From a virus (Duplodnaviria > Heunggongvirae > Uroviricota > Caudoviricetes): a DNA stretch of 38,460 bases. The notes below the pieces were generated by a model. The model saw only the letters and a program-made list of their open reading frames with translations, was not told where the DNA came from and searched no databases. This document shows positions 1-10,875 of the stretch, piece after piece. Position 1 is the stretch's first letter. Every line of letters begins with the position of its first letter. The position numbers and the translations under genes are program-made. The stretch is from the IMG/VR virus record IMGVR_UViG_3300045911_000760. The stretch is one strand, 5' to 3'.

Positions 1-2232
1 GCTGAAGCGAGCGCCGCCCTGCGTGCCGCCGCCCAGGCCGCCGAGGAACTCGGCGAGCGGCCGCGCGCGGCAGAGCTCGCCAGCCGCGCCGCCGAGCTGG
101 CGCCGGACGTCGCGGAAATCCAGCTCCTGGCCCGTCGCCTGGAGTACTTGGAGCGCGGGGCGGGTAACGCAGAGCAAGCGGCTCGCACCGTCGCGCAGCT
201 CCGCGGTCTCGGCGAGCGCTTGACCCATCGCCAGATCGAGCTTCGCGCATTCCTCCTCGCAGAGGCGCTCGACGTCGTCGAAGGCGGCGGGGCGGGACGC
301 CGCGAGCTCGACAAAGCCGTGGAGCGTGTCGGGAGCCGTGCGCTCGTTGCGGTCGGACTCGCCGAGCGGCTCGAAGACGATCCACGCCGCGCCTTGCAGC
401 TCCTCGATGCTGCGCTGGGCAGCGACCTGCACGGGCTCCGGGGCGAGGGGCAGGTGCTCATTCGCGCTGGGCGCGTGGCGCGCGCACTGGGCGAGCTCGA
501 TCGAGCACAAGCCTACCTTTCGGCCGTCGCCCACGAAGATCCACGCCACGTCGAAGCAGCCGCCGAGCTGCGCGAGATCGCCGCGGAGCGCGGGCGCGTC
601 GAGCGAGATGCGCAGGCGCGCCTCGAGAAAGAGGCGAAGGCGCGCGCCGAACGGGAGGCCGCCGAAACGAAGGCACGCGCAGAACGCGCCGAGTCGGAGG
701 CGAAGGCACGCGCCGAGGCGGAGCGTCAGGCTGCGGCAGCGAAACTCCAGAAGGAGCGCGCCGAGTCGGAGGCGAAGGCACGCGCCGAGGCGGAGCGTCA
801 GGCTGCGGCAGCGAAACTCCAGAAGGAGCGCGAAGCGGCGGAGGCAAAGGCACGTGCCGATCGGGAGGCGGCGGAGCTCAAAGCCCAGAAGGAACGCGAG
901 GCAGCTGAGGCGGAGGCCCGCGCGGCGGCACGAGCCGCCGAGGCGGAGAGGAAAGCAGCCGAAGAGAAGGCCCGCGCCGATGCAGAGGCAGAGGCGGTCA
1001 GGGCTCGCGCCGAAGCGGAGGCACGCGCTCAGCGCGAGCAAGCCGAGCGCGAGCAGGCCCAACGCGAGCAAGCCGAGCGTGCGCAGGCCGAGGCGCAGCC
1101 AGCGCCAGGTTCATCCCAGCGCCCCCGGGGTCGTCGGCTCTCTTCCGGATCCATGGCGAGCGTGCGGGAGCGAGATCTCGTGGCTGCCTTCGAAAACGGC
1201 GATGCGCTCGCCGGCCGCACGCTCCTGGAGCTTCTGGCCGGAGACGCCGCGCGGTCCCACGACCGCCTCGTCATTGCCGAGCGCTTGACGACGCTCTTGC
1301 CGGGGGACGAGTGGACGCTGCGCCAGCTGGTGCAGGCAGCCGAGAGCGAGCGCAATGCCCCGCTCGCCGCCGCTGTGCGCCACGTGCTGGGAACCTTCGG
1401 TGTGGTGCCCTTCGAGGTGGCTCCCGAGGTTGGCAAGCTGCGCGAGCAACCCGACGAGGTGCGCAAGATGCTCACCGGCGACTTGCAGTGCGCAGGCGTC
1501 GAGGCGGCGGCAATCGTCTGGGACAACGTCCCCAACCTGTTCAAACAGGAGCCGAGCGCCTATGGCATCACCGGGCTCGAGCGCGTGGCAGCTGGACCCC
1601 TGACCCCCCTATCGCGTTTGTACGCGGACGCCGTGCGCCTGTTCGGGGTCGGCCGCGTGCCCGTCTTCCAGCGCCGTGGGGCAGAGGCCATCACCCTTTC
1701 GGTGGCGCTGCTCTCGCCACCTGCGCTCCTCGTGAGCGGAGAGATCGAAGACGGCAGCTCCGAGCTCGCGTTCCACTTTGGGGCGATGATCCTGGCGACC
1801 ACGCCCGAGCTTGCGTTGCTGTTCGGCGCAGAACCGCCGCGGGTCCGCCTCCTGCTGGCTGCCTTGCTCGCGGCGTTCGGACCCCCCAGTGCGGCGCGCC
1901 CGAGCCCGGAGGTGACCCGGCTCGCGGCGTCCCTCTGGGAATTCTTGCCGCCACGCGGGCAACGGCGCCTGTCGCAACTCTGCGCCCACCCGGAGCAATT
2001 CGCTTACGACCGCGTGACCGCCGCGGCGCGTCAGGTGCTCCGCCGCGCCGGCCTCGTCCTGTGCGCGGACTTGGCGACGGCGGTGGTCGCCGCATGCGAG
2101 GAGGAGCGCCTAGCCCCGCCCCGCACGCTGACGGAACTCGGGGAGTGCGCCCGCCACAGTGCTGCGGTCGCCGACCTCCTGCGGCTCGCGGTCAGCCCGG
2201 CCTACGCAGAAGTGCGCTGGAGCGCCGCCTGA
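1..2232 (+). CDS. Host TPR-like / TolA-like coiled-coil protein, 5' truncated by the window
   Basis: Frame 1 is open from base 1 to TGA at 2230-2232. Helical TPR-like segment (ALGELDRAQAYLSAVAHEDP), then an A/E/K/R-rich linker and a globular C-terminal domain. Confidence 0.75.
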   Translation, partial: AEASAALRAAAQAAEELGERPRAAELASRAAELAPDVAEIQLLARRLEYLERGAGNAEQAARTVAQLRGLGERLTHRQIELRAFLLAEALDVVEGGGAGRRELDKAVERVGSRALVAVGLAERLEDDPRRALQLLDAALGSDLHGLRGEGQVLIRAGRVARALGELDRAQAYLSAVAHEDPRHVEAAAELREIAAERGRVERDAQARLEKEAKARAEREAAETKARAERAESEAKARAEAERQAAAAKLQKERAESEAKARAEAERQAAAAKLQKEREAAEAKARADREAAELKAQKEREAAEAEARAAARAAEAERKAAEEKARADAEAEAVRARAEAEARAQREQAEREQAQREQAERAQAEAQPAPGSSQRPRGRRLSSGSMASVRERDLVAAFENGDALAGRTLLELLAGDAARSHDRLVIAERLTTLLPGDEWTLRQLVQAAESERNAPLAAAVRHVLGTFGVVPFEVAPEVGKLREQPDEVRKMLTGDLQCAGVEAAAIVWDNVPNLFKQEPSAYGITGLERVAAGPLTPLSRLYADAVRLFGVGRVPVFQRRGAEAITLSVALLSPPALLVSGEIEDGSSELAFHFGAMILATTPELALLFGAEPPRVRLLLAALLAAFGPPSAARPSPEVTRLAASLWEFLPPRGQRRLSQLCAHPEQFAYDRVTAAARQVLRRAGLVLCADLATAVVAACEEERLAPPRTLTELGECARHSAAVADLLRLAVSPAYAEVRWSAA
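685..832 (+). repeat. Exact in-frame 72-bp tandem duplication
   Basis: 685-756 is repeated at 757-828 (plus 4 more bases), encoding RAESEAKARAEAERQAAAAKLQKE twice. Confidence 0.95.
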
Positions 2233-2384
2233 AGCACCCCGGGGAGGCTGCCGCTGGAGCGGCGCGACACGCATGTCGCGCCCGGCATCTGCGCCGGGGG
2301 AGCATTTCTCGTGCTTCGTCGCCATTCGCCCCTGTGGCATGGGCCTTGCTTGAAGCGTGGATCGTGCTCAGATCCCCTGGAGCC

Positions 2385-4205
2385 ATGGCCGATCAGCCGC
2401 CGCGCAGATCCACCGGGACCCGACGACGCGGGTCGATTGGCTGGCGCGCTTCGTTGCTGGCGTGCCTCGGATTCGGCGTGGCTGGCTGCTCCGTCGATGT
2501 CTTGGAGATGGCGGGCGGTTCGAGCACACGCAACGAATGCTCGGAGAGCAGGGAGTGCGGCGGGGGGCGTTGCGTGGGCGGCCAGTGCCGCGCAGAGGAG
2601 GGCACGATCGAGGCGCTGCTCCTCGAGATCACTCCCCCAGCGGACGCGCCCACCATCGCCGGGGTTCGCTTCGTCCAGACCCTGGGCGGCGTTCCGGCTG
2701 GTGGTGGGGCGCTGGACCTGGAACTCGGGCACGTGTCGCAGGTCCAGGGCACCGTGACGTCGGCTCCGGAGAGCCTCACCTGCGCGCCCGCCGCCGGGGA
2801 AGGGGACGCGCCCAGTCTCGATGGGAGTCTGCCCGCCCGGGTGACCCTGACGCCGCGGGCCCGGCAGCTCGGCGTCGCGAGCCCCAGCCACACGAGCGAC
2901 GCCGTCCTGATCGACGGGGGCTATCGCTTCCGAGCAGCGGTTCCGCCGGGTCGGTACGACATCTACGTCGAACCCCGCGAGGTGCTGGGCGAATGCGTCC
3001 GTCCGCCACACCTGTTCTTGGACCGGGCCGTGGAGGCAGGGGACGTGGACCTGCGACTGAAGCTCGCGACCCCCCAGGCGCTCGCGGTTCGGGTGCGGTG
3101 GCCCGACGTCGCTACGACTCTCGACGGCTGGGTGCTCGACATCATCGAGCGCGAGTCCGGTAGGTTGCTGTCCACGCGCGGCGTGCTCGGCGCGGGCCAA
3201 CAGACCGCCGACGGACTCGAATACAGCCTAGCTCTCGCGTACGTGCCGGCCGATCCGGCGGGAACGGGTCTCGAACTGGTGCGTCTGTCGCCGCCGCCGG
3301 GCGTGGCGGCCCCCCAGTTGATCGTCGACCGCAGCGTGGTCGAGCTCTTCCAAGAGGGGGAGGGGGTCATCGACCAGCTGCGCTCCCTGCCCCGTCCGGT
3401 GCGTGTCATGGCTCAAGTGAGCGCCGGCTACAGCACGGCGTCCGTCGCCGCGACGGTGAGCCTCGTGGCGACCGAGCTGCGCATGATCAGCCCCGGGACG
3501 GTCGCCGCGTTCGAGCGGGTGGTCGAAACCGATGGGAGCGGCCAGTTCGCGGTGGACCTGCTGCCCGGGACCTACCGGGTGGTCGCTCTCCCCCCCGTCG
3601 GATCCGGCCTGTCTCCGACCGAGGCCGTGTGGCAGATCAGCGCGAACGAGGAGGTGCAGGCAGGGCGCGTGGTGGAGCTCGTCTCGAGCGCTGAGATCGC
3701 AGCCCGCGTCTTCGGACCGGGGCGGGGCGTAGTCGCCGGCGCGTCCGTCCACGCCGCTGCTTCCGCTGGAACCCACGTGGCAGGTGTGCTCGACCGGGCC
3801 TTGGGACTGACCTCCTACACACCCCGCGCCGAGGGGGCGATCACCGACGGCGAGGGCCGCTTCCGGATGACTGCGGATCGGGGCCTGTTCGATCTCTGGG
3901 TGCGTCCCGGTGCGGGCTCCGGCTTCGCGTGGCTCGTTTACCCTGGTCTCGATGCGAGCGCGGGCGCGGTGCCCCTCGGCGACGTGCGGCTGCCGCTGCC
4001 GGTCGGTTACACGGGCGTCGTGACGTCGGCGGACTTGGGCACCGGCGTTTCCTCGGCGCTGGTGCGCGCCTACGCGTATCTCAAGGGTGCCGAGCTCACG
4101 AACGATCCCGCCGAAGCCACCGCGGTGGTGCAGGTCGCCGAGAGCCGGACCGGACCCGGCGGCGAGTTCGAGTTGCTACTCCCGGCCACCCTGTCGGCGC
4201 CGTGA
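2385..4205 (+). CDS. Host putative lipoprotein with beta-sandwich (carboxypeptidase-regulatory-like) repeats
   Basis: ATG at 2385 (MADQPP), lipobox-like FGVAGC, Cys-rich EGF-like stretch, repeated GxFxxxLxPGxY motifs. The ORF-track extension to 1311 is a shadow. Confidence 0.7.
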   Translation: MADQPPRRSTGTRRRGSIGWRASLLACLGFGVAGCSVDVLEMAGGSSTRNECSESRECGGGRCVGGQCRAEEGTIEALLLEITPPADAPTIAGVRFVQTLGGVPAGGGALDLELGHVSQVQGTVTSAPESLTCAPAAGEGDAPSLDGSLPARVTLTPRARQLGVASPSHTSDAVLIDGGYRFRAAVPPGRYDIYVEPREVLGECVRPPHLFLDRAVEAGDVDLRLKLATPQALAVRVRWPDVATTLDGWVLDIIERESGRLLSTRGVLGAGQQTADGLEYSLALAYVPADPAGTGLELVRLSPPPGVAAPQLIVDRSVVELFQEGEGVIDQLRSLPRPVRVMAQVSAGYSTASVAATVSLVATELRMISPGTVAAFERVVETDGSGQFAVDLLPGTYRVVALPPVGSGLSPTEAVWQISANEEVQAGRVVELVSSAEIAARVFGPGRGVVAGASVHAAASAGTHVAGVLDRALGLTSYTPRAEGAITDGEGRFRMTADRGLFDLWVRPGAGSGFAWLVYPGLDASAGAVPLGDVRLPLPVGYTGVVTSADLGTGVSSALVRAYAYLKGAELTNDPAEATAVVQVAESRTGPGGEFELLLPATLSAP

Positions 4206-4422: not shown

Positions 4423-5697
4423 GTGAGTCGCCCCTCCACTGCGCCGAGCCATCGGCCCGCCGAGCAGGGCTCGCCCGCCGTCGACCCGATCTCGGCGGTG
4501 GCGGAGTTTCATGCCGGCGTCGGGGACCCCTCCCCGTCAGCCGACGCGAGCGCGGCACCCCGCGCGTATCGCGAGGGCAGCGGCCGTGACGCGGCGGCGG
4601 AGGACACGAGCGGGCCGACGGAGCAGGCGGCGGCTTGGGGGGACTCTCGGGCGCTGGCCGGCGCCTTACATGAAGTCTCCAACGCCCTCACGGTCGTGCT
4701 CGGCTGGCTCGACGCCGTCGCGGAGAGCGACGACCCCGCCAAATTGCACGCCGCTCTCGCCGTCGCCCGCGAGCACGCTCGCCGCGGACGCAACCTGGCG
4801 CGACGCGCGATCGGTGCGGAAGGTGAGAGTGTTTGCGAACCGCGCGGTGCCGAAGGGCTCGCGCGGTTCGCCGTGATGAGTGTTCGACCACGCGCGCTCG
4901 CGTGCGGCGTGCACGTCGAGCTAGACGACGCAGAGGGCCCGGATGTGCCCTTGCTCGACGAAGCGCCCGCCCTGCAGGTGCTGACCAACTTGCTTCTGAA
5001 TGCCATCGATTTCTCCCCTGCCGGCGGCTCCGTCTGCGTGAGCGTGCGCGTCGAGGCAGACGCGGTCGTGTTCGTCGTCAGCGACGAGGGACCGGGCGTT
5101 CCCGAGGAACGTCGCGCTAGCCTGTTCGAAGATCCCGTCAGCACGCGCCTCGGGGGAGCGGGCATCGGGTTGCCCTATTCGCGCCGGCTCGCGTGCGAGC
5201 GTGGTGGCGATTTGCGTCTTGTGCCGACGTCACGCGGCGCTTGCTTCGAGGTGGTCTGGCCACGCGCGAGCACCACCGGGCTTCGTCCCAGCGCCTCCCC
5301 AGACTCGACCTCGCTCAAAGTGCTCGTCGGGTCGCGCATTCTGGTCGTCGAAGACGACGCCGCGATCGCCTCGCTGCTCGAGCTCAGCCTCGAGGCCAAG
5401 GGGGCCGAGGTGCTCGTCGCGCCCGGCGCAGAGAACCTCGCGCAGGTGCTCGCAGGTCGGCCGGTGTTCGACGCTGCGCTCCTCGACCTGTCCCCCGTCA
5501 AGGAGGATCTCGGCCGTTGGCTCGACGAGATCCGCCGCCAGGCGCCGGAGGCACCCCTCTTGCTCGTCAGCGGTCACCCGAACGGGGTGCCCGAAGAAGC
5601 CGAGGGACGTTTCTCTGCCTGGGTGCGGAAGCCCTTCGAAATGGGTGAGCTGCTGCAGACGCTGGCCGGCCTGCTCGCCCAGCGCGTGCAGCACTGA
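4423..5697 (+). CDS. Hybrid sensor histidine kinase / response regulator
   Basis: H-box LHEVSNAL, N-box QVLTNLLLNA, G1 SDEGPGV, G2 GGAGIGL; receiver domain ILVVEDD...LLD...RKPF. Confidence 0.9.
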   Translation: MSRPSTAPSHRPAEQGSPAVDPISAVAEFHAGVGDPSPSADASAAPRAYREGSGRDAAAEDTSGPTEQAAAWGDSRALAGALHEVSNALTVVLGWLDAVAESDDPAKLHAALAVAREHARRGRNLARRAIGAEGESVCEPRGAEGLARFAVMSVRPRALACGVHVELDDAEGPDVPLLDEAPALQVLTNLLLNAIDFSPAGGSVCVSVRVEADAVVFVVSDEGPGVPEERRASLFEDPVSTRLGGAGIGLPYSRRLACERGGDLRLVPTSRGACFEVVWPRASTTGLRPSASPDSTSLKVLVGSRILVVEDDAAIASLLELSLEAKGAEVLVAPGAENLAQVLAGRPVFDAALLDLSPVKEDLGRWLDEIRRQAPEAPLLLVSGHPNGVPEEAEGRFSAWVRKPFEMGELLQTLAGLLAQRVQH

Positions 5698-7131
5698 GCC
5701 GTGCAGGAGCGAGCCGTTCAGGAGCGAGCCGTTCAGCTCCGAGCTCCAGCACTCGTTCTGTGCGCCTTTGCGCCGGACCCGCTCCAGAACCCTTGACATA
5801 CCGCGGGGGCAGCCTACCTTCCCCGCGCCGGCGACGCCTGGGGTCCCAGGTGGTCCACCCTGCGAAGGTGGCGGAATGGCAGACGCACCAGCTTGAGGTG
5901 CTGGCGGGGTAACTCCCGTGGAGGTTCGAGTCCTCTCCTTCGCACAGCCAAAAAGAGCGGTGCCGGGTGGTGTAAGGCACCACCTGGCACGCTCTGACGG
6001 TGGCTCTGCCCCAGTATCCGCCCCAGAAAGGCCCGAGGGGGGTGCGCCAAGTTGGGCAAGAACCGAGATCGCCTCGGTCTCGTTCGCGTGGGCGTAGCGG
6101 TTCGTCGTGGTCGTCTGCTTGTGACCGACGAGGAAGGCGGCGCCGATCAGGTTGCCCGTCGTCATGAGCTCGGTCGTTCGCACGTGGCGGAGGTCGTGCA
6201 GGTGGACCCGCTCAGCCAGCTCAGGTGGCATAACCTTCGCGGCCGCCTTGCGGATCGTGGAGCGGAAGTCGCGGTCGGCGAACACCTGACCTCCGGCTTG
6301 CACGGGCAGGGACTCGAGGAGTTCCACCGCCCTGGGCGTGAGCGGCACGCGCCGCCCCCACCGGTTCTTGTCGGCGTCCGCGGTGATCTTCAGGAAGGTC
6401 TGCCCGCGGCTCCAGTGCGTACCCACGCGGAAGCGCCACCAGAAGCCTGCACGGAGCCCTGTCTCGAGGAGGATTTCGACCAGACCCCGAATGGGCCATC
6501 GGATACCGTCGACGCGACTGCGCCGAGAGAACTCAGGCAGGTGGGGCAGCATCGCACGGACAAGCTCGACCGTGAGACCTTCGGTGTGCCCTCGGTTGCC
6601 GTGCTTGTGCCGGGTACCCTGAGCCTTCCCTGGGCGCGGCGGGAACTTCGGCAGTTCGGTGATCCACCCGTGCGTCTCGGCGAACACCAGGACCTGACGG
6701 AGCGTGGAGAACTCCTTTTTCACGGTCTCGTAGGTCACCTCCTTCAACCGGCGAGCTTGGTACGACGCCAGGGCTCCCGTGGTGACGTCGGAAAGGCGTG
6801 GGAATGCTGGGACGAGGTGTGCCGAGAGGTGCATCGTCCGTAGCTCGGCTGTCTCTTGCGAAATCTCACCGCCGGTCTTCTCGAGCAGGTACGAAGCCCC
6901 GACCTCCGCGAGCTTGGCGTGAGGGTCCGACCCTTGGATTGGCTTGCCCCATCTCCCCGCCAGGACGTCTGCGACCATGACGGCGCCCCAACGGGACGCC
7001 GCAGCCCCGTCGGTGCTCTTCAGCGTCGAGTTTGAGAAGTCGAAGCGTCGACCCTGGTGACTGAACCGGCAGCGCCAGCGCTTGTTGATCTCGTCCCAGA
7101 CTACTCTGGGAGCCTTGGGCTTACCCGCCAT
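5230..7131 (-). CDS. int: Tyrosine integrase; ORF continues through the tRNA into host DNA
   Basis: ATG at 7131 (MAGKPK). Catalytic motifs ETGLR, HDLRH, VGH, NRY. No stop before the tRNA; first stop is at 5230-5232. Confidence 0.9.
   Translation of the reverse strand: MAGKPKAPRVVWDEINKRWRCRFSHQGRRFDFSNSTLKSTDGAAASRWGAVMVADVLAGRWGKPIQGSDPHAKLAEVGASYLLEKTGGEISQETAELRTMHLSAHLVPAFPRLSDVTTGALASYQARRLKEVTYETVKKEFSTLRQVLVFAETHGWITELPKFPPRPGKAQGTRHKHGNRGHTEGLTVELVRAMLPHLPEFSRRSRVDGIRWPIRGLVEILLETGLRAGFWWRFRVGTHWSRGQTFLKITADADKNRWGRRVPLTPRAVELLESLPVQAGGQVFADRDFRSTIRKAAAKVMPPELAERVHLHDLRHVRTTELMTTGNLIGAAFLVGHKQTTTTNRYAHANETEAISVLAQLGAPPSGLSGADTGAEPPSERARWCLTPPGTALFGCAKERTRTSTGVTPPAPQAGASAIPPPSQGGPPGTPGVAGAGKVGCPRGMSRVLERVRRKGAQNECWSSELNGSLLNGSLLHGSVLHALGEQAGQRLQQLTHFEGLPHPGRETSLGFFGHPVRVTADEQEGCLRRLAADLVEPTAEILLDGGQVEERSVEHRPTCEHLREVLCAGRDEHLGPLGLEAELEQRGDRGVVFDDQNARPDEHFERGRVWGGAGTKPGGARAWPDHLEASAA
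5696..5736 (+). repeat. 15-bp tandem repeat (about 2.7 copies)
   Basis: gagccgtgcaggagc gagccgttcaggagc gagccgttcag, directly after the kinase stop. Confidence 0.85.
5793..5820 (+). promoter_or_regulatory. Sigma70-type promoter of tRNA-Leu
   Basis: TTGACA (5793-5798), 16-bp spacer, TACCTT (5815-5820), about 40 bp upstream of the tRNA. Confidence 0.7.
5862..5944 (+). tRNA. tRNA-Leu(GAG); likely integration site
   Basis: Acceptor GCGAAGG/CCTTCGC, anticodon arm CCAGC-TTGAGGT-GCTGG, long variable arm, T-loop TTCGAGT; CCA not encoded. Confidence 0.97.
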
Positions 7132-7417
7132 GGGCCCTCCGCTCGAGGTGCTCCGCAAGCTCCTTCGCTTTCGGGTTCTGGCGCGTTGTGGCGTGCGCGG
7201 AGCCGCGCCGCTTGCTCGGACGGCGCACGGCAGGCGCGTCTTCGACTGTGACGTTCATGTACTCGTCCAGGTCCTCTCTGGCGTAGAGAGGCTTCCTGCC
7301 AATGCGTCGGCATCGCACACGCTTCGCCACGTGCTCCCGAAACGAGCTCACGCTGACGTTGCAGTACGCTGCGGCTTGCTTCGTATCGAGGTAGGGGCTC
7401 GTGCTGGGGGACGTCAC
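7121..7417 (-). CDS. xis: Excisionase-like HTH_17/MerR-type DNA-binding protein
   Basis: YLDTKQAAAYCNVSVSSFRE...RRIGRKPLYAREDLDEY; overlaps the int start; GTG at 7417 after a GGAG RBS. Confidence 0.8.
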   Translation of the reverse strand: MTSPSTSPYLDTKQAAAYCNVSVSSFREHVAKRVRCRRIGRKPLYAREDLDEYMNVTVEDAPAVRRPSKRRGSAHATTRQNPKAKELAEHLERRAHGG

Positions 7418-8395: not shown

Positions 8396-8703
8396 CAGTC
8401 CTGGCACTCCGGGCAGCCCAGTCGGCCGCATTCGTTGCCTGACGTGCAGCGGTTGCCGGCCACACCGGGCGTTTCGTCGGGTTCGCGCTGTGCCCCGAGC
8501 CGCAACTCCAGCAGCCGCCGCTCCAAGACCTCCACGGCCTCCGGCGAGAGTCCCACGGTGATCATCTTGTAGTCGTCGGTCGTCACACGCAGACGGGCAA
8601 TCGCGCCCTGTTCAGCGTCGACGTCGCTGGGTTCCTCCAACGTGATCACGGTGCGGACGCCATCCTCGTAATCCACGATGCAAGTCACAGGGTGTGCGGT
8701 CAT
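8395..8703 (-). CDS. Hypothetical protein with C-terminal Cys cluster
   Basis: MTAHPV start coupled to the upstream stop; ends CTSGNECGRLGCPECQD. Confidence 0.55.
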   Translation of the reverse strand: MTAHPVTCIVDYEDGVRTVITLEEPSDVDAEQGAIARLRVTTDDYKMITVGLSPEAVEVLERRLLELRLGAQREPDETPGVAGNRCTSGNECGRLGCPECQD

Positions 8704-9179
8704 TGGGCGAAGTCTCCAGCCTGTAGGACGACCAGTCCGCGCGACGTGCCGATGCGTCTCCAACCTGCGCGCAGGAAGCAGCGGCCTGGGTCGCGCTTGT
8801 GTCGTACCTTGCGAGGATCGACCTCCGTCGTGAGCGGCGCTGGAGGGAGCCCCCACTTGCGTTCCCAGTAGCCCAGCGTAAGTGACGTTGCTGACCGAAC
8901 GAGTTCGGAGGAGCGAGCCGGCCCCTCGTTGCGGAAGAGCGAGCAGCGCCACCGCAGATTCCCCGCTGGGTCCAGGTTCTCGATCGCGCCCCAAACAGCC
9001 GAGTTGTCATGCGTTAGCAGCACGAAGGTGCGCCCGCTCGCCATGAACTCCACGGCGCCAGGCGTCTGCCGCGAGTAGTGACGATCCGCGAGCGCGCGGG
9101 CCGCGGGATGGCAGCGTCGCACCTGTCGCCACGGTGAGTCGTCCGCTGGTAGCAGCGCCAACTGCAGAGCGCCCATCAC
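8700..9179 (-). CDS. Conserved phage protein, possible Mom-like GNAT-fold DNA modification enzyme
   Basis: ADRHYSRQ...WRCSLFRNEG...TEVDP...GRCFLRAGW; motif layout recalls Mom/XF1762-type proteins (from memory, unverified). Confidence 0.45.
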   Translation of the reverse strand: MMGALQLALLPADDSPWRQVRRCHPAARALADRHYSRQTPGAVEFMASGRTFVLLTHDNSAVWGAIENLDPAGNLRWRCSLFRNEGPARSSELVRSATSLTLGYWERKWGLPPAPLTTEVDPRKVRHKRDPGRCFLRAGWRRIGTSRGLVVLQAGDFAQ

Positions 9180-10678
9180 GCGACCCTCCAGGCAAAAGGG
9201 CGCCGCGCTCTCACGGCAGTCACGTCTCGGCGGCTACTCACGAGAAAGTCACTCGGTTTCACCGCTCGCATCACCCCCGACGTTCGGGGAGCACTCGATC
9301 CACTTCGTGCCATAGCCGGCGTCCTTCCGCCGCGTGGACATGCTGCTCGGGATGGGCCCACGTATGCCCCGAGCTTCCCGCGAGTGATCAGCTCGCGACG
9401 GGCCGGCGTGACGCGGCCCTTCTCCCGTTTTTGGGTAGCGCCCTGCCGCGTGTCGAACACGGGACCCCCGGGGGCCGCACCTGCCAGGACTACCCGATAA
9501 CGCACGGGACTAGCGCGCCCAGATTCCTTAACGCTGTTGTCGCCGCGTTTGGATACTGGATAGGTCAACTCGCGGGCCTCCGCCGAGGGGCTTGAACCCT
9601 CGTGCACAACTAAGCGCGTCCGCAAAGTCGTGGGCCCACCTGGCGCGGAGAAGATTGCCCCGAAAGCGCCGCCGCTCGGGACCACACGGTTGCTCCTAGC
9701 GCTCACCCAAGCGCTGTTCGGCGCGGTGGACCCGCGGGGAATCGAACCCCGGTCCGCGAAGTCTCGAATCTCACCCTCGCTCACGCGCGTAGCTGCATTC
9801 AAGGCAAGCAGCGGCCCTAGACGCCTGGGGGTCGGCGCCTCCACCACCGTCAGGTTCTCGGCCACGGATCGACGGACTTCCGGGGCCCCGCTCGTGTGAT
9901 GACGCTGGAGAGCTACTCGAGCTCCTGGCGCTCCAACGCTCTCAGGCCGCAGCCTCGAGAGGAGTGACGTTGTCGTTTGCGACTGTGTCGTGCCCAAAGT
10001 GATCACGGCGGTATGGGCGCCCGCCGGCGCGGTCAGGTGAGCCCGTCGCTCCACGTCGAAGCCTGTCGGACCCTGGTTGCTGTCTCTCCGGCTGTCACGG
10101 CGCGAGTCACAGTCCCCTGCCGTTGGGTCGCCTACGCAGACTCGTTGCGTCTTCCGGGGTTGCAGGCCCGCTCTCCCGGTTGAAGCATCGTCGATGCTCT
10201 CGCGAGCAACAGGCCGCTGACACGAAGAGGATGCCGTCTCTCCGGCTGTCACGTCTCGCGCTACTCTCACCGCTGGCCTAGGACGCGGCCTCTCGTCTCC
10301 GACGTTCGAACATTCGAGCGCTCCACAGGCTGGGGTCGAACCAGCGACCAGTCGGTTAACAGCCGACCGCTCTACCACTGAGCTACCGTGGATCGATGCC
10401 GCGTTCCCCAAGGAGGCCGAGAATCCCCTGGAGCAAGTGCACGCGGCGGCACGTTCCCTTACGGGGTTCAGCGGGTACCGGCCTGCCACGGGTTTGCCCC
10501 GCTTCACGGCCGGGGCCCTCGCCCCTCGGCTTTCGGAATTCTTCAGTAGCAAGGACGCATGATGCACCTCCTTCGTCTGCGTCTCCTTGCAGGGGCACTC
10601 GTCGGCTTCAGGAGCCCACAGGAGCGCACCGAGCAGGGACAAGAACAGCGCGATCACCGCCGCGAAGAGCGTCTTCAT
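9176..10678 (-). CDS. ORF with N-terminal TM/signal segment (MKTLFAAVIALF) that stays open across the RNA cluster
   Basis: Start overlaps the upstream stop (ATGA) and stop overlaps the next start (GTGATG). Beyond about 45 aa the sequence is R/A/G/S-rich and not protein-like. Confidence 0.35.
   Translation of the reverse strand: MKTLFAAVIALFLSLLGALLWAPEADECPCKETQTKEVHHASLLLKNSESRGARAPAVKRGKPVAGRYPLNPVRERAAACTCSRGFSASLGNAASIHGSSVVERSAVNRLVAGSTPACGALECSNVGDERPRPRPAVRVARDVTAGETASSSCQRPVARESIDDASTGRAGLQPRKTQRVCVGDPTAGDCDSRRDSRRDSNQGPTGFDVERRAHLTAPAGAHTAVITLGTTQSQTTTSLLSRLRPESVGAPGARVALQRHHTSGAPEVRRSVAENLTVVEAPTPRRLGPLLALNAATRVSEGEIRDFADRGSIPRGSTAPNSAWVSARSNRVVPSGGAFGAIFSAPGGPTTLRTRLVVHEGSSPSAEARELTYPVSKRGDNSVKESGRASPVRYRVVLAGAAPGGPVFDTRQGATQKREKGRVTPARRELITRGKLGAYVGPSRAACPRGGRTPAMARSGSSAPRTSGVMRAVKPSDFLVSSRRDVTAVRARRPFAWRVA
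9202..9241 (-). repeat. Repeated RNA motif, copy C
   Basis: GTGAGTAGCCGCCGAGACGTGACTGCCGTGAGAGCGCGGC. Confidence 0.75.
9202..9420 (-). ncRNA. Structured RNA domain, possibly GOLLD-like
   Basis: Hairpin GGGCCG-CGTCACGC-CGGCCC whose loop is complementary to CGTGAC near the 3' end; CGG-TGAAA-CCG hairpin; ends in the repeated motif. Confidence 0.5.
9433..9495 (-). ncRNA. tRNA-like mini-element 2 (acceptor-like stem, hairpin, T-arm)
   Basis: GGGTA-GTCCTG-GCAGGTGC-GGCCC/CCGG/GGGTC-CCGTG-TTCGACA-CGCGG-CAGGGC-G-CTACCC. Confidence 0.45.
9577..9650 (-). ncRNA. tRNA-like mini-element 1 with tmRNA TLD geometry
   Basis: CTCCGCG-CCAGGTGGGCCC-ACGACT...AGTTGT-GCAC-GAGGG-TTCAAGC-CCCTC-GGCGGAG-G. Confidence 0.65.
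9725..10073 (-). ncRNA. ssrA: Phage-encoded tmRNA
   Basis: 5' GGGTCCG pairs with 3' CGGGTCC-ACC including G3.U70; stemless D-loop ACAGGCTTCGAC; T-arm CGGGG-TTCGATT-CCCCG; internal tag frame; 349 nt. Confidence 0.97.
9942..9980 (-). other. tmRNA tag reading frame, ANDNVTPLEAAA*
   Basis: GCA AAC GAC AAC GTC ACT CCT CTC GAG GCT GCG GCC TGA. Confidence 0.93.
10079..10099 (-). repeat. Repeated RNA motif, copy A (partial), just upstream of the tmRNA 5' end
   Basis: CGTGACAGCCGGAGAGACAGC. Confidence 0.8.
10233..10270 (-). repeat. Repeated RNA motif, copy B
   Basis: GTGAGAGTAGCGCGAGACGTGACAGCCGGAGAGACGGC. Confidence 0.8.
10321..10392 (-). tRNA. Phage tRNA-Asn(GTT)
   Basis: TCCACGG-TA-GCTC-AGTGGTA-GAGC-G-GTCGG-CTGTTAA-CCGAC-TGGTC-GCTGG-TTCGACC-CCAGC-CTGTGGA-G; canonical cloverleaf, no CCA. 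Confidence 0.97.
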
Positions 10679-10875
10679 GCGTCCTCCCGAGTGATCCTGC
10701 ACGCGCCGAACGGTGGATTGCCCGGCAAGCACGCAGCCCGCCACGCCTCGAACGCAGTCGTGATCGGGTAACCGGTGAGCTCGACGCGGTCGCACTCGCG
10801 CTCGTCCGTACCAGGCACGTCGTGCCAGGGACCCTCGACTATCCAGGTCGGACTAGACGCGCGCGATTGGGTCAC
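10675..10875 (-). CDS. Hypothetical phage protein
   Basis: 66 aa, coupled to neighbours by GTGA/ATGA overlaps. Confidence 0.55.
   Translation of the reverse strand: MTQSRASSPTWIVEGPWHDVPGTDERECDRVELTGYPITTAFEAWRAACLPGNPPFGACRITREDA

Follow-up and report, generated by a model that had tools for sequence, protein, structure and literature searches.

A predicted tRNA-shaped RNA without an anticodon occupies a cassette site beside the tmRNA gene of a prophage

Background

Non-coding RNAs that resemble transfer RNA (tRNA) are already known from phage islands that carry tRNA, transfer-messenger RNA (tmRNA) and Ro60 genes (PMC4201824; PMC12135203). The closest described systems are the Y RNAs, such as YrlA (RF02553), Deinococcus Yrn1 and Yrl1/2 of phage phiLo, the last being among the Y RNAs with a tRNA-like module (PMC12135203); according to Chen et al. 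2014 (PMC4201824), Yrn1 combines D-loop features with a closed 'anticodon' stem-loop and has a T arm. Here we analyze an element of comparable shape, E1 (9577..9651, minus strand), in a 38,460-nucleotide (nt) stretch of Caudoviricetes DNA (IMG/VR record IMGVR_UViG_3300045911_000760; this whole stretch is hereafter the window), where it lies downstream of a prophage tmRNA gene. Like these Y RNAs, E1 would be a non-decoding RNA that imitates the acceptor and elbow of tRNA, and it too shares a phage RNA island with tRNAs and a tmRNA; the YrlA of M. smegmatis is cut by RNase P and receives CCA. They differ in that YrlA is circularly permuted, whereas in E1 the 5'/3' acceptor ends are open and the central hairpin is closed, and in that E1 has no CGAA motif, no Ro-binding stem, no Rfam match and no Ro60 gene in its window.

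The tRNA-like domain of tmRNA (RF00023) shares with E1 an acceptor stem, a T arm, a shortened D region and the lack of an anticodon arm, but E1 has a simple hairpin where the mRNA-like domain would be. Further afield, mascRNA (MALAT1) and the tRNA-like parts of the MHV68 TMER transcripts are excised by RNase P and/or RNase Z and receive CCA without being aminoacylated, and their excision sets the ends of the neighbouring RNAs. They resemble E1 as small tRNA mimics of cloverleaf-like shape in which the D and anticodon arms are reduced, but they are eukaryotic or herpesviral and have no homology to it.

We read E1 as a self-contained small-RNA cassette and not a derivative of tmRNA, and as a new orphan variant among the known tRNA-like RNAs of phage islands. 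The reading that we favour, with about as much doubt as conviction, is that E1 is a non-decoding tRNA mimic, processed like a tRNA and kin in function to the anticodon-less tRNAs of sister islands and to the tRNA-like modules of Y RNAs.

Sequence and predicted structure of E1

Read from 9650 to 9577 on the minus strand, which also carries the rest of the island, E1 opens with the 7-nt strand CUCCGCG of its acceptor stem (9650-9644, paired with 9584-9578), followed by a G-rich mini D region of 12 nt, CCAGGUGGGCCC (9643-9632), which starts with CCAGG. A closed hairpin (9631-9606) takes the position of the anticodon arm; its 6-nt strands ACGACU and AGUUGU enclose UUGCGGACGCGCUU, which contains a GCG-GACG-CGC hairpin. 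The 4-nt linker GCAC (9605-9602) leads into the T arm (9601-9585, GAGGG-UUCAAGC-CCCUC), with a stem of 5 base pairs (bp), a G-C closing pair and a 7-nt loop that matches the UUCRA consensus. The 3' acceptor strand GGCGGAG, the discriminator G9577 and CCC come next. All the segments that the initial annotation had listed at 9577-9650 are present, including the short GCG-GACG-CGC hairpin that it saw as replacing an mRNA-like domain, but two of its details change in the predicted fold. The D-loop described as stemless is indeed a 12-nt CCAGG segment, yet folding predicts within it a mini-stem of 3 bp (GCC/GGC) that encloses an AGGUG loop. The central helix, given as 6 bp, shows these six pairs and reaches 7 bp with an added C-G, ending in a UU/UU internal loop followed by the GCG-GACG-CGC hairpin. 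In the register of the annotation, pair 7-66 is a G/G mismatch, the only one in helices that are otherwise fully paired with G.U at most; the minimum-energy fold uses U9651.G9577 and has a 7-bp acceptor and a 6-bp T stem. The coaxial stack of acceptor and T arm measures 12-13 bp.

The fold is more stable than expected from composition: RNAfold gives a minimum free energy (MFE) of -38.9 kcal/mol, where 200 dinucleotide shuffles give -30.8 +/- 3.5 (z -2.35). The dominant cloverleaf-like fold makes up 40% of the ensemble, and the cloverleaf is retained when E1 is folded in contexts of 117 nt and 326 nt. We also scanned both strands of the whole window for a T arm with an acceptor, defined as a 5-bp stem around UUCRANN whose next 7 nt pair with an upstream heptamer. 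The scan returned the two true tRNAs, E1, a second element called E2 and one other site, where 0.06 sites are expected per shuffled window. The sequence is identical across the whole region in Logan assemblies from two other sequencing runs (L072 and L073), so that E1 is not an assembly artefact. Runs SRR30649435 and SRR35364708 contain this phage.

E1 thus has two features of the tRNA family (RF00005), an acceptor stem of 6-7 bp and a T arm with a consensus loop, but lacks the 4-bp D stem and the 7-nt anticodon loop. ARAGORN does not call it, and the Rfam tRNA model finds no match to it at E<=10. As the initial annotation had stated, there is no anticodon loop, the hairpin ending in a loop of 4 nt, which excludes decoding. 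G3.U70 is absent as well: the pair is C3-G70 in the register of the annotation and U3-A70 in the MFE register, and by the established identity rule of AlaRS alanylation would be unlikely. We conclude that E1 is, on its predicted structure, a tRNA-shaped RNA gene without an anticodon.

Sister islands and cassette exchange

The position after the tmRNA is a cassette site, which holds nothing, one or two tRNA-likes across sister phages. In the window, the RNA island forms part of the early-left operon, on the side of int and xis, and reads tRNA-Asn, tmRNA, E1, E2 and a conserved 3' domain. Its relatives were retrieved by BLAST into a metagenome-assembled genome (MAG, G003) and by protein searches with the translation of the long open frame that runs through the island (L074, L076 and L077). 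The order in the G003 prophage is TROVE/Ro60, tRNA-Thr, tmRNA (tag ANDNVTPLQAAA), 3' domain, xis, int and tRNA-Gly. This prophage and the window are collinear on either side of a 285-nt segment (9433..9717, delimited by alignment with G003), which G003 lacks and which comprises H1, a hairpin called H2, E1, spacer 2 and E2.

L074, an ENA metagenome contig, retains H2, spacer 2 and E2. Spacer 2 and E2 are about 97% identical to those of the window, and the 5' half of H2 is almost unchanged. The window/L074 alignment shows that the slot between H2 and spacer 2, which is held by E1 in the window, contains a different element (705-761), CGUGGAG-UA-GCUC-AGUGGUA-GAGC-(8 nt)-GCAGG-UUCGAUU-CCUGC-CUUCACG-G-CCC, which scores 46.5 bits with the Rfam tRNA model and has canonical D and T arms, the anticodon arm being deleted. 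Its similarity to tRNA-Asn and to the L076 tRNA-like RNAs is significant (z 6-7), whereas E1 is similar to none of these. The two occupants of the slot share their flanks, C1-G72 and a GCC tail, and a U stands at position -1 of both and of E2.

L077 is nearly identical to the G003 island (tRNA-Thr, leader, 3' domain), but at 1204-1264 a 60-nt tRNA without an anticodon arm exactly replaces the 350-nt tmRNA found in L048 (10054-10403). The exchange is bounded by the same leader and the same 3' flank and represents a clean cassette swap. The mini-tRNAs of L074 and L077 differ by six double compensatory changes in the acceptor and T stems, their D arms differ at one loop base, and their T loops are identical. 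With a covariance model built from the two (R2), its members reach 82-90 bits, real tRNAs reach 18-36 bits and E1 does not appear at E<=1; no further members were found in 151 genomes of the family. As in E1, acceptor and T arm are kept and the anticodon function is removed, but both mini-tRNAs keep a canonical D arm where E1 has a 3-bp mini D stem and a 26-nt closed hairpin, and E1, unlike them, stays below threshold with both the Rfam tRNA model and R2.

In L076 the order is Ro60, tRNA-likes, tmRNA, H2, one degenerate tRNA-like, 3' domain and integrase. Within 1382-3312, a full Ro60 gene (TROVE + vWA_Ro60, 540 amino acids) is followed directly by a stem that bears GCCGAAG and by two tRNA-likes. 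These tRNA-likes, which lie before the tmRNA, have perfect acceptor, D and T arms, with inserts of 39 and 65 nt for the anticodon loop or arm; the first insert also contains GCCGAAG, and they are likely to be non-permuted tRNA-like Y RNAs. The degenerate element after H2 has kept its T stem and lost its T loop. Throughout these islands the modules that flank the cassette site are far better conserved than its contents.

A separate observation comes from G313 (L059, 1852-1959, minus strand), where a tRNA-like of 108 nt comes next after tRNA-Thr and is preceded by a leader module. Its acceptor has 7 bp, its D arm is GCACG/CGUGC and its T arm is good, but the middle is aberrant; the element is neither called by ARAGORN nor matched by the Rfam tRNA model.

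A site with such a fast turnover may also contain debris, and E1 could be the decaying leftover of a tRNA or tRNA-like gene, without a function of its own. The degenerate element of L076 points that way, as do the absence of E1 from the G003 prophage, its orphan sequence and the loss of a D arm that the L074 element keeps. However, fully paired helices argue against random decay, the T loop still matches its consensus, the fold exceeds shuffled sequence in stability, and the miniature D design that E1 and E2 have in common at one offset (11/13 positions) looks like a product of selection and not of erosion. Junk of 75 nt is, moreover, seldom retained in phage genomes. We therefore consider this origin unlikely, although it deserves to be taken seriously.

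E1 and the tRNA-like domain of the tmRNA

The prophage tmRNA (9724..10073, minus strand; tag ANDNVTPLEAAA) scores 76.4 bits in Rfam and is 83% identical to that of the G003 prophage; between the two, the T stem shows compensatory changes and the acceptor stem a U.G to A-U change that preserves pairing. G3.U70 is kept in both. E1 begins 73 nt past its 3' end. The initial annotation took E1 for a mini copy of the tRNA-like domain of this tmRNA, and proposed that it acts as an SmpB sponge. The segments of that domain read GGGUCCG / ACAGGCUUCGAC / ... / GGAC / CGGGG-UUCGAUU-CCCCG / CGGGUCC, and their lengths do agree with those of E1, but nothing beyond the lengths does. Global alignment of E1 with the acceptor, D-loop and T-arm sequence of the tmRNA is no better than chance (z 0.5). 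The D-loop motif (..GG.UUCGAC) and the GGAC linker of the tmRNA are absent from E1, which has CCAGGUGGGCCC and GCAC instead, and the coincidence is limited to CAGG, found at the same offset in tmRNA, E1 and E2, and to three of the four linker bases. The covariance models that the annotation had suggested as a check, tmRNA (RF00023) as well as tRNA, found no match to E1 at E<=10 (Rfam searches of 0.7-0.8 kb). E1 and the tmRNA domain have in common an acceptor stem and a T arm, a short D region that contains GG, and the lack of an anticodon arm; these are the traits of any minimal tRNA mimic that preserves the elbow.

That E1 is a stripped-down tRNA-like domain which binds SmpB and modulates trans-translation seems to us extremely improbable. 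This model could appeal to the parallel segment lengths, to the shared CAGG and to L077, where a mini tRNA-like occupies the tmRNA slot, so that tmRNA and mini elements are alternative cargo. The chance-level similarity, the loss of G3.U70, UUCGAC and GGAC together, and the silence of the tmRNA model nevertheless lend the SmpB sponge no support at the sequence level. In the slot-mates of L074 and L077, moreover, the tRNA D arm is complete, where the tmRNA domain has a stemless D-loop, and there is no evident reason for a phage that carries a tmRNA to titrate SmpB. The tRNA-derived element in the E1 slot of L074 also comes close to a condition that the initial annotation had set against its own view, homologues showing a decayed ordinary tRNA. 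Since the G003 prophage has a tmRNA without E1 and E2, E1 is not an obligate companion of tmRNA. The other suggestion of the annotation, a tRNA-shaped decoy, is one that E1 may still satisfy.

Two other links to tmRNA were considered and rejected. ARAGORN calls a permuted tmRNA at 9399-9817 (minus strand) with the atypical tag AATTALRNLGALVPCVIG; this is a false call that reuses the T arm of the real tmRNA, and the Rfam permuted-tmRNA model gives only 12-18 bits there. Nor is E1 a tmRNA 3' end displaced at an attachment (att) site: the T arms differ, E1 has its own 5' acceptor strand, and the att site is tRNA-Leu. In related genomes, RF00023 gives 35-37 bits to 76-nt elements that are most likely tRNAs, and 29 bits to a 53-nt T arm with an acceptor 3' end in G003 (L049, 1069-1121, minus strand; ..CGCCUCCACC). 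The latter fragment probably derives from a tmRNA 3' end that was displaced and stayed behind at an att site.

Modules around E1

The hairpin H2 (9657..9689, minus strand, from folding; GUCCCGA ... UCGGGGC) ends 7 nt upstream of E1. One of its pairs is U.G in the window and U-A in L074 and L076. Its core, CCGUGUGGUCCCGAGCGG ... UCGGGRC, has no Rfam entry, but the exact 18-mer recurs in 30 IMG/VR contigs (L081-L110) of varied guanine-plus-cytosine (GC) content, some of them low in GC, where it stands 5-40 nt upstream of open reading frames (ORFs) with a ribosome-binding site and ATG, or 5-9 nt upstream of ordinary tRNA genes. Because H2 precedes ordinary tRNA genes and ORFs in these viral contigs, E1 occupies the position of a 'gene'. 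H2 could mark a site of processing, stabilise the 5' end or be associated with a promoter.

Spacer 2 (9492..9576, minus strand, from pairwise alignment and folds) separates E1 from E2 and is predicted to form two hairpins; the three changes in L074 fall at predicted unpaired positions or give G.U. E2 (9439..9491, minus strand, found by the scan) is a second mini tRNA-like element, of 53 nt, with the acceptor GUCCUG/CAGGGC, a mini D region GCAGGUGC, a 5-bp hairpin and the T arm CCGUG-UUCGACA-CGCGG. E1 and E2 alike have a closed hairpin in the anticodon position, and both carry NCAGGUG-N-GGCCC directly after the acceptor strand. Folded alone, E2 is no more stable than shuffles. In L074 one acceptor pair of E2 changes from U.G to U-A, a change that would break a competing long hairpin.

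The conserved 3' domain (9195..9432, minus strand; 240 nt) is 88% identical to that of G003, exceeding the 83% of the tmRNA. It is present in G003, L074, L076 and L077 and partly in G313, has no Rfam family match, and ends in a leader module before the phrog_24928 gene (8703-9176).

The island contains no sigma-70 promoter or intrinsic terminator consensus. E1 might be a punctuation mark, that is, purely a cis signal for RNase P and tRNA processing which trims the 3' trailer of the tmRNA and separates island RNAs from downstream mRNAs, the released RNA being inert; mascRNA in MALAT1 and the tRNA-like parts of the TMER transcripts would be the parallels. Its place soon after the tmRNA 3' end in a transcript that lacks an internal terminator consensus, the U at -1 and the GCC tail would suit such a role. 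But in G003 and L077 a mature tmRNA or mini-tRNA stands beside the 3' domain without E1 and E2, and two successive tRNA-likes with a highly conserved spacer exceed what trimming needs. We judge it distinctly unlikely that E1 is limited to this role.

Two side observations concern the island as a whole. A leader module, ..GACGUGACAGCCGG(G)AGAGAC(C)GGC.., in many cases with a CCCCGAACGUCGGGGG hairpin before it, lies about 5-25 nt upstream of each RNA gene, be it tmRNA, tRNA-Thr, tRNA-like or mini-tRNA, and also precedes protein genes (the window copy C and L069). The window has copies at 10233-10270, 10079-10099 and 9202-9241 (minus strand), and others occur in L048, L059, L069, L074 and L077. 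Furthermore, one stop-free frame on the RNA strand spans the whole island in all five loci compared: 406/407 codons in the window (9176-10795, minus strand), 283/283 in L048 (9811-10660), 230/230 in L074 (461-1150), 364/365 in L076 (3006-4100) and 139/140 in L059 (1841-2260, minus strand). None of 300 shuffles matches this in the first four loci (window, L048, L074 and L076). Substitutions are spread evenly over the codon positions, so that stops appear to be avoided without amino-acid constraint, and the E1+E2 indel of 285 nt equals 95 codons. The open frame may serve to keep ribosomes moving along the island, as an anti-Rho measure or for coupling to downstream genes.

Searches for E1 relatives and the Y-RNA question

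Several results weigh against the reading of E1 as a tRNA mimic with kin in sister islands. No homologue of E1 was found anywhere searched, and therefore E1 itself offers no test by covariation. Its similarity to the candidate relatives is not significant (z -0.4 with the L074 element, 1.7 with tRNA-Asn, 1.6 with E2), so that position and shape are the grounds for relating it to the tRNA-derived cassettes. The 285-nt segment is dispensable, being absent from G003. As regards kinship with Y RNAs, no CGAA motif (GNCGAAN0-1G) occurs in or around E1, and no TROVE/Ro60 gene was found in the 38-kb window by tblastn with the G003 TROVE protein.

The searches for relatives covered several collections. 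The exact 30-mer of E1 and a pattern combining its D motif and T loop are absent from IMG/VR, and the D+T pattern has two chance matches in JGI metagenomes, without T stem or acceptor. Neither blastn against the GenBank phage collection nor BLAST against 401 genomes of the order and 383 of the family returned a homologue. A single-sequence covariance model of E1 (R1) gives E1 109 bits and nothing else above noise: its matches of 26-32 bits in 151 genomes are GC-rich noise without a T loop, and it finds no further E1 in all the loci fetched. Two protein-space searches through the open frame likewise yielded no E1 homologue, and the plus-strand ORF that overlaps E1 (9134-9592) has no protein relatives. 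Attempts through neighbouring features ended similarly. Among 23 IMG/VR loci with phrog_24928 there was no tmRNA, and ordinary tRNA genes were present in only 2; the integrase has no relatives among the genome contigs searched; a 22-mer of the tmRNA is absent from IMG/VR and JGI metagenomes, and a 23-mer of spacer 2 from IMG/VR.

The Ro60 gene beside the island in two sister prophages (L076 and G003) raises the question of whether E1 is a module of the Y-RNA type, that is, whether it serves a Ro60 (Rsr), supplied by the phage from outside the window or by the host, as effector module or partner RNA, in the manner of the tRNA mimics of Deinococcus Yrn1 or YrlA. The CGAA-motif stems and insert-bearing tRNA-likes of L076 are suggestive in this respect, and the description of Yrn1 (PMC4201824) points the same way. 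Apart from the missing motif and TROVE gene, however, G003 has a TROVE gene without having E1, and the Rfam YrlA model (RF02553) is silent in the window at E<=10, as is the mascRNA model on E1; the latter matches only the tmRNA T arm here. We hold this identity to be very unlikely.

We also considered a long-range stem of the Ro type, in which the upstream GGUCCCGA would pair with a downstream UUGACC. The local pairing of GGUCCCGA in H2 is preferred, and the long-range stem is rejected because H2 shows the U.G to U-A change and recurs alone in 30 contigs. Weak Rfam YrlA matches in L074 and L076 were set aside too: each covers the T arm of a tRNA-like together with the D arm of the following one, which fits the 'dimeric tRNA' type of YrlA false positive (Chen et al., PMC4201824).

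Possible processing and action of E1

If E1 is a non-decoding tRNA mimic, as we favour, it would be transcribed together with the island. Its coaxial stack of 12-13 bp, the C1-G72 pair, the U at -1 and the encoded G73-C74-C75 tail are, by established substrate rules, compatible with RNase P cleavage and CCA completion. RNase P would then cut the 5' end, and the 3' end would be trimmed to the encoded tail and completed by the CCA-adding enzyme. We infer that the product would be a stable tRNA mimic of about 75 nt, unable to decode, which most likely would occupy a factor that reads the tRNA acceptor and elbow; as a side effect, its excision would part the tmRNA from the downstream RNA and mRNA.

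A more specific proposal starts from tmRNA and anticodon-less mini tRNA-likes as alternative cargo of one slot (L077 versus G003): E1, E2 and the mini-tRNAs would act on the same host machinery as tmRNA or tRNA 3' ends, either as acceptor/elbow mimics engaging SmpB, EF-Tu or the ribosomal A site, or as sponges for defence toxins that attack tRNA CCA ends. We regard it as a long shot.

The prophage

Positions 1 to about 5945 of the window are host DNA of 72% GC, with a hybrid histidine kinase and a tRNA-Leu(GAG); at about 5945 the GC content drops to the 66-67% of the prophage. A tyrosine integrase and an excisionase-like helix-turn-helix protein are encoded on the minus strand next to tRNA-Leu. 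Beyond them lie small early genes and regulators, and the likely structural genes, judging from the ORF layout, are on the plus strand. This layout, attL-int-xis, is that of a lambda-like prophage, here with tRNA-Leu as the integration site; the phage extends at least 43 kb beyond the window. MAGs of Myxococcales and Polyangiales contain a 35-mer of this tRNA-Leu, which would fit a myxobacterial host. The first gene of the RNA island is the tRNA-Asn (GUU; 10321..10392, minus strand).

The integrase frame (5230-7158, minus strand) has no stop after the catalytic domain and stays open through the antisense of tRNA-Leu and about 240 codons of host DNA. This suggests that attP lies inside int.

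Conclusions

The result is mostly corrective: a likeness in segment lengths to the tRNA-like domain of tmRNA shows neither descent from it nor SmpB binding. The exchange of cassettes with tmRNA behind shared linker modules is the more interesting by-product. The sister islands provide natural variants, with no element, a mini-tRNA, E1 and E2, or a tmRNA.

Phage-encoded tRNAs are now understood as counter-measures to host defences that target tRNA, and the study of phage Ro60/Y-RNA modules is only beginning. To these the locus adds a compact, probably non-decoding tRNA mimic, which alternates as a cassette, behind a common linker hairpin, with tmRNA, true tRNAs and anticodon-less tRNAs. Were mimics of this kind processed and able to bind a defined partner, they would offer temperate phages a cheap and evolvable means of interfering with enzymes that read tRNA; and if the acceptor/elbow-mimic or toxin-sponge proposal were true, E1 and its slot-mates would constitute a new class of phage counter-measure RNA.

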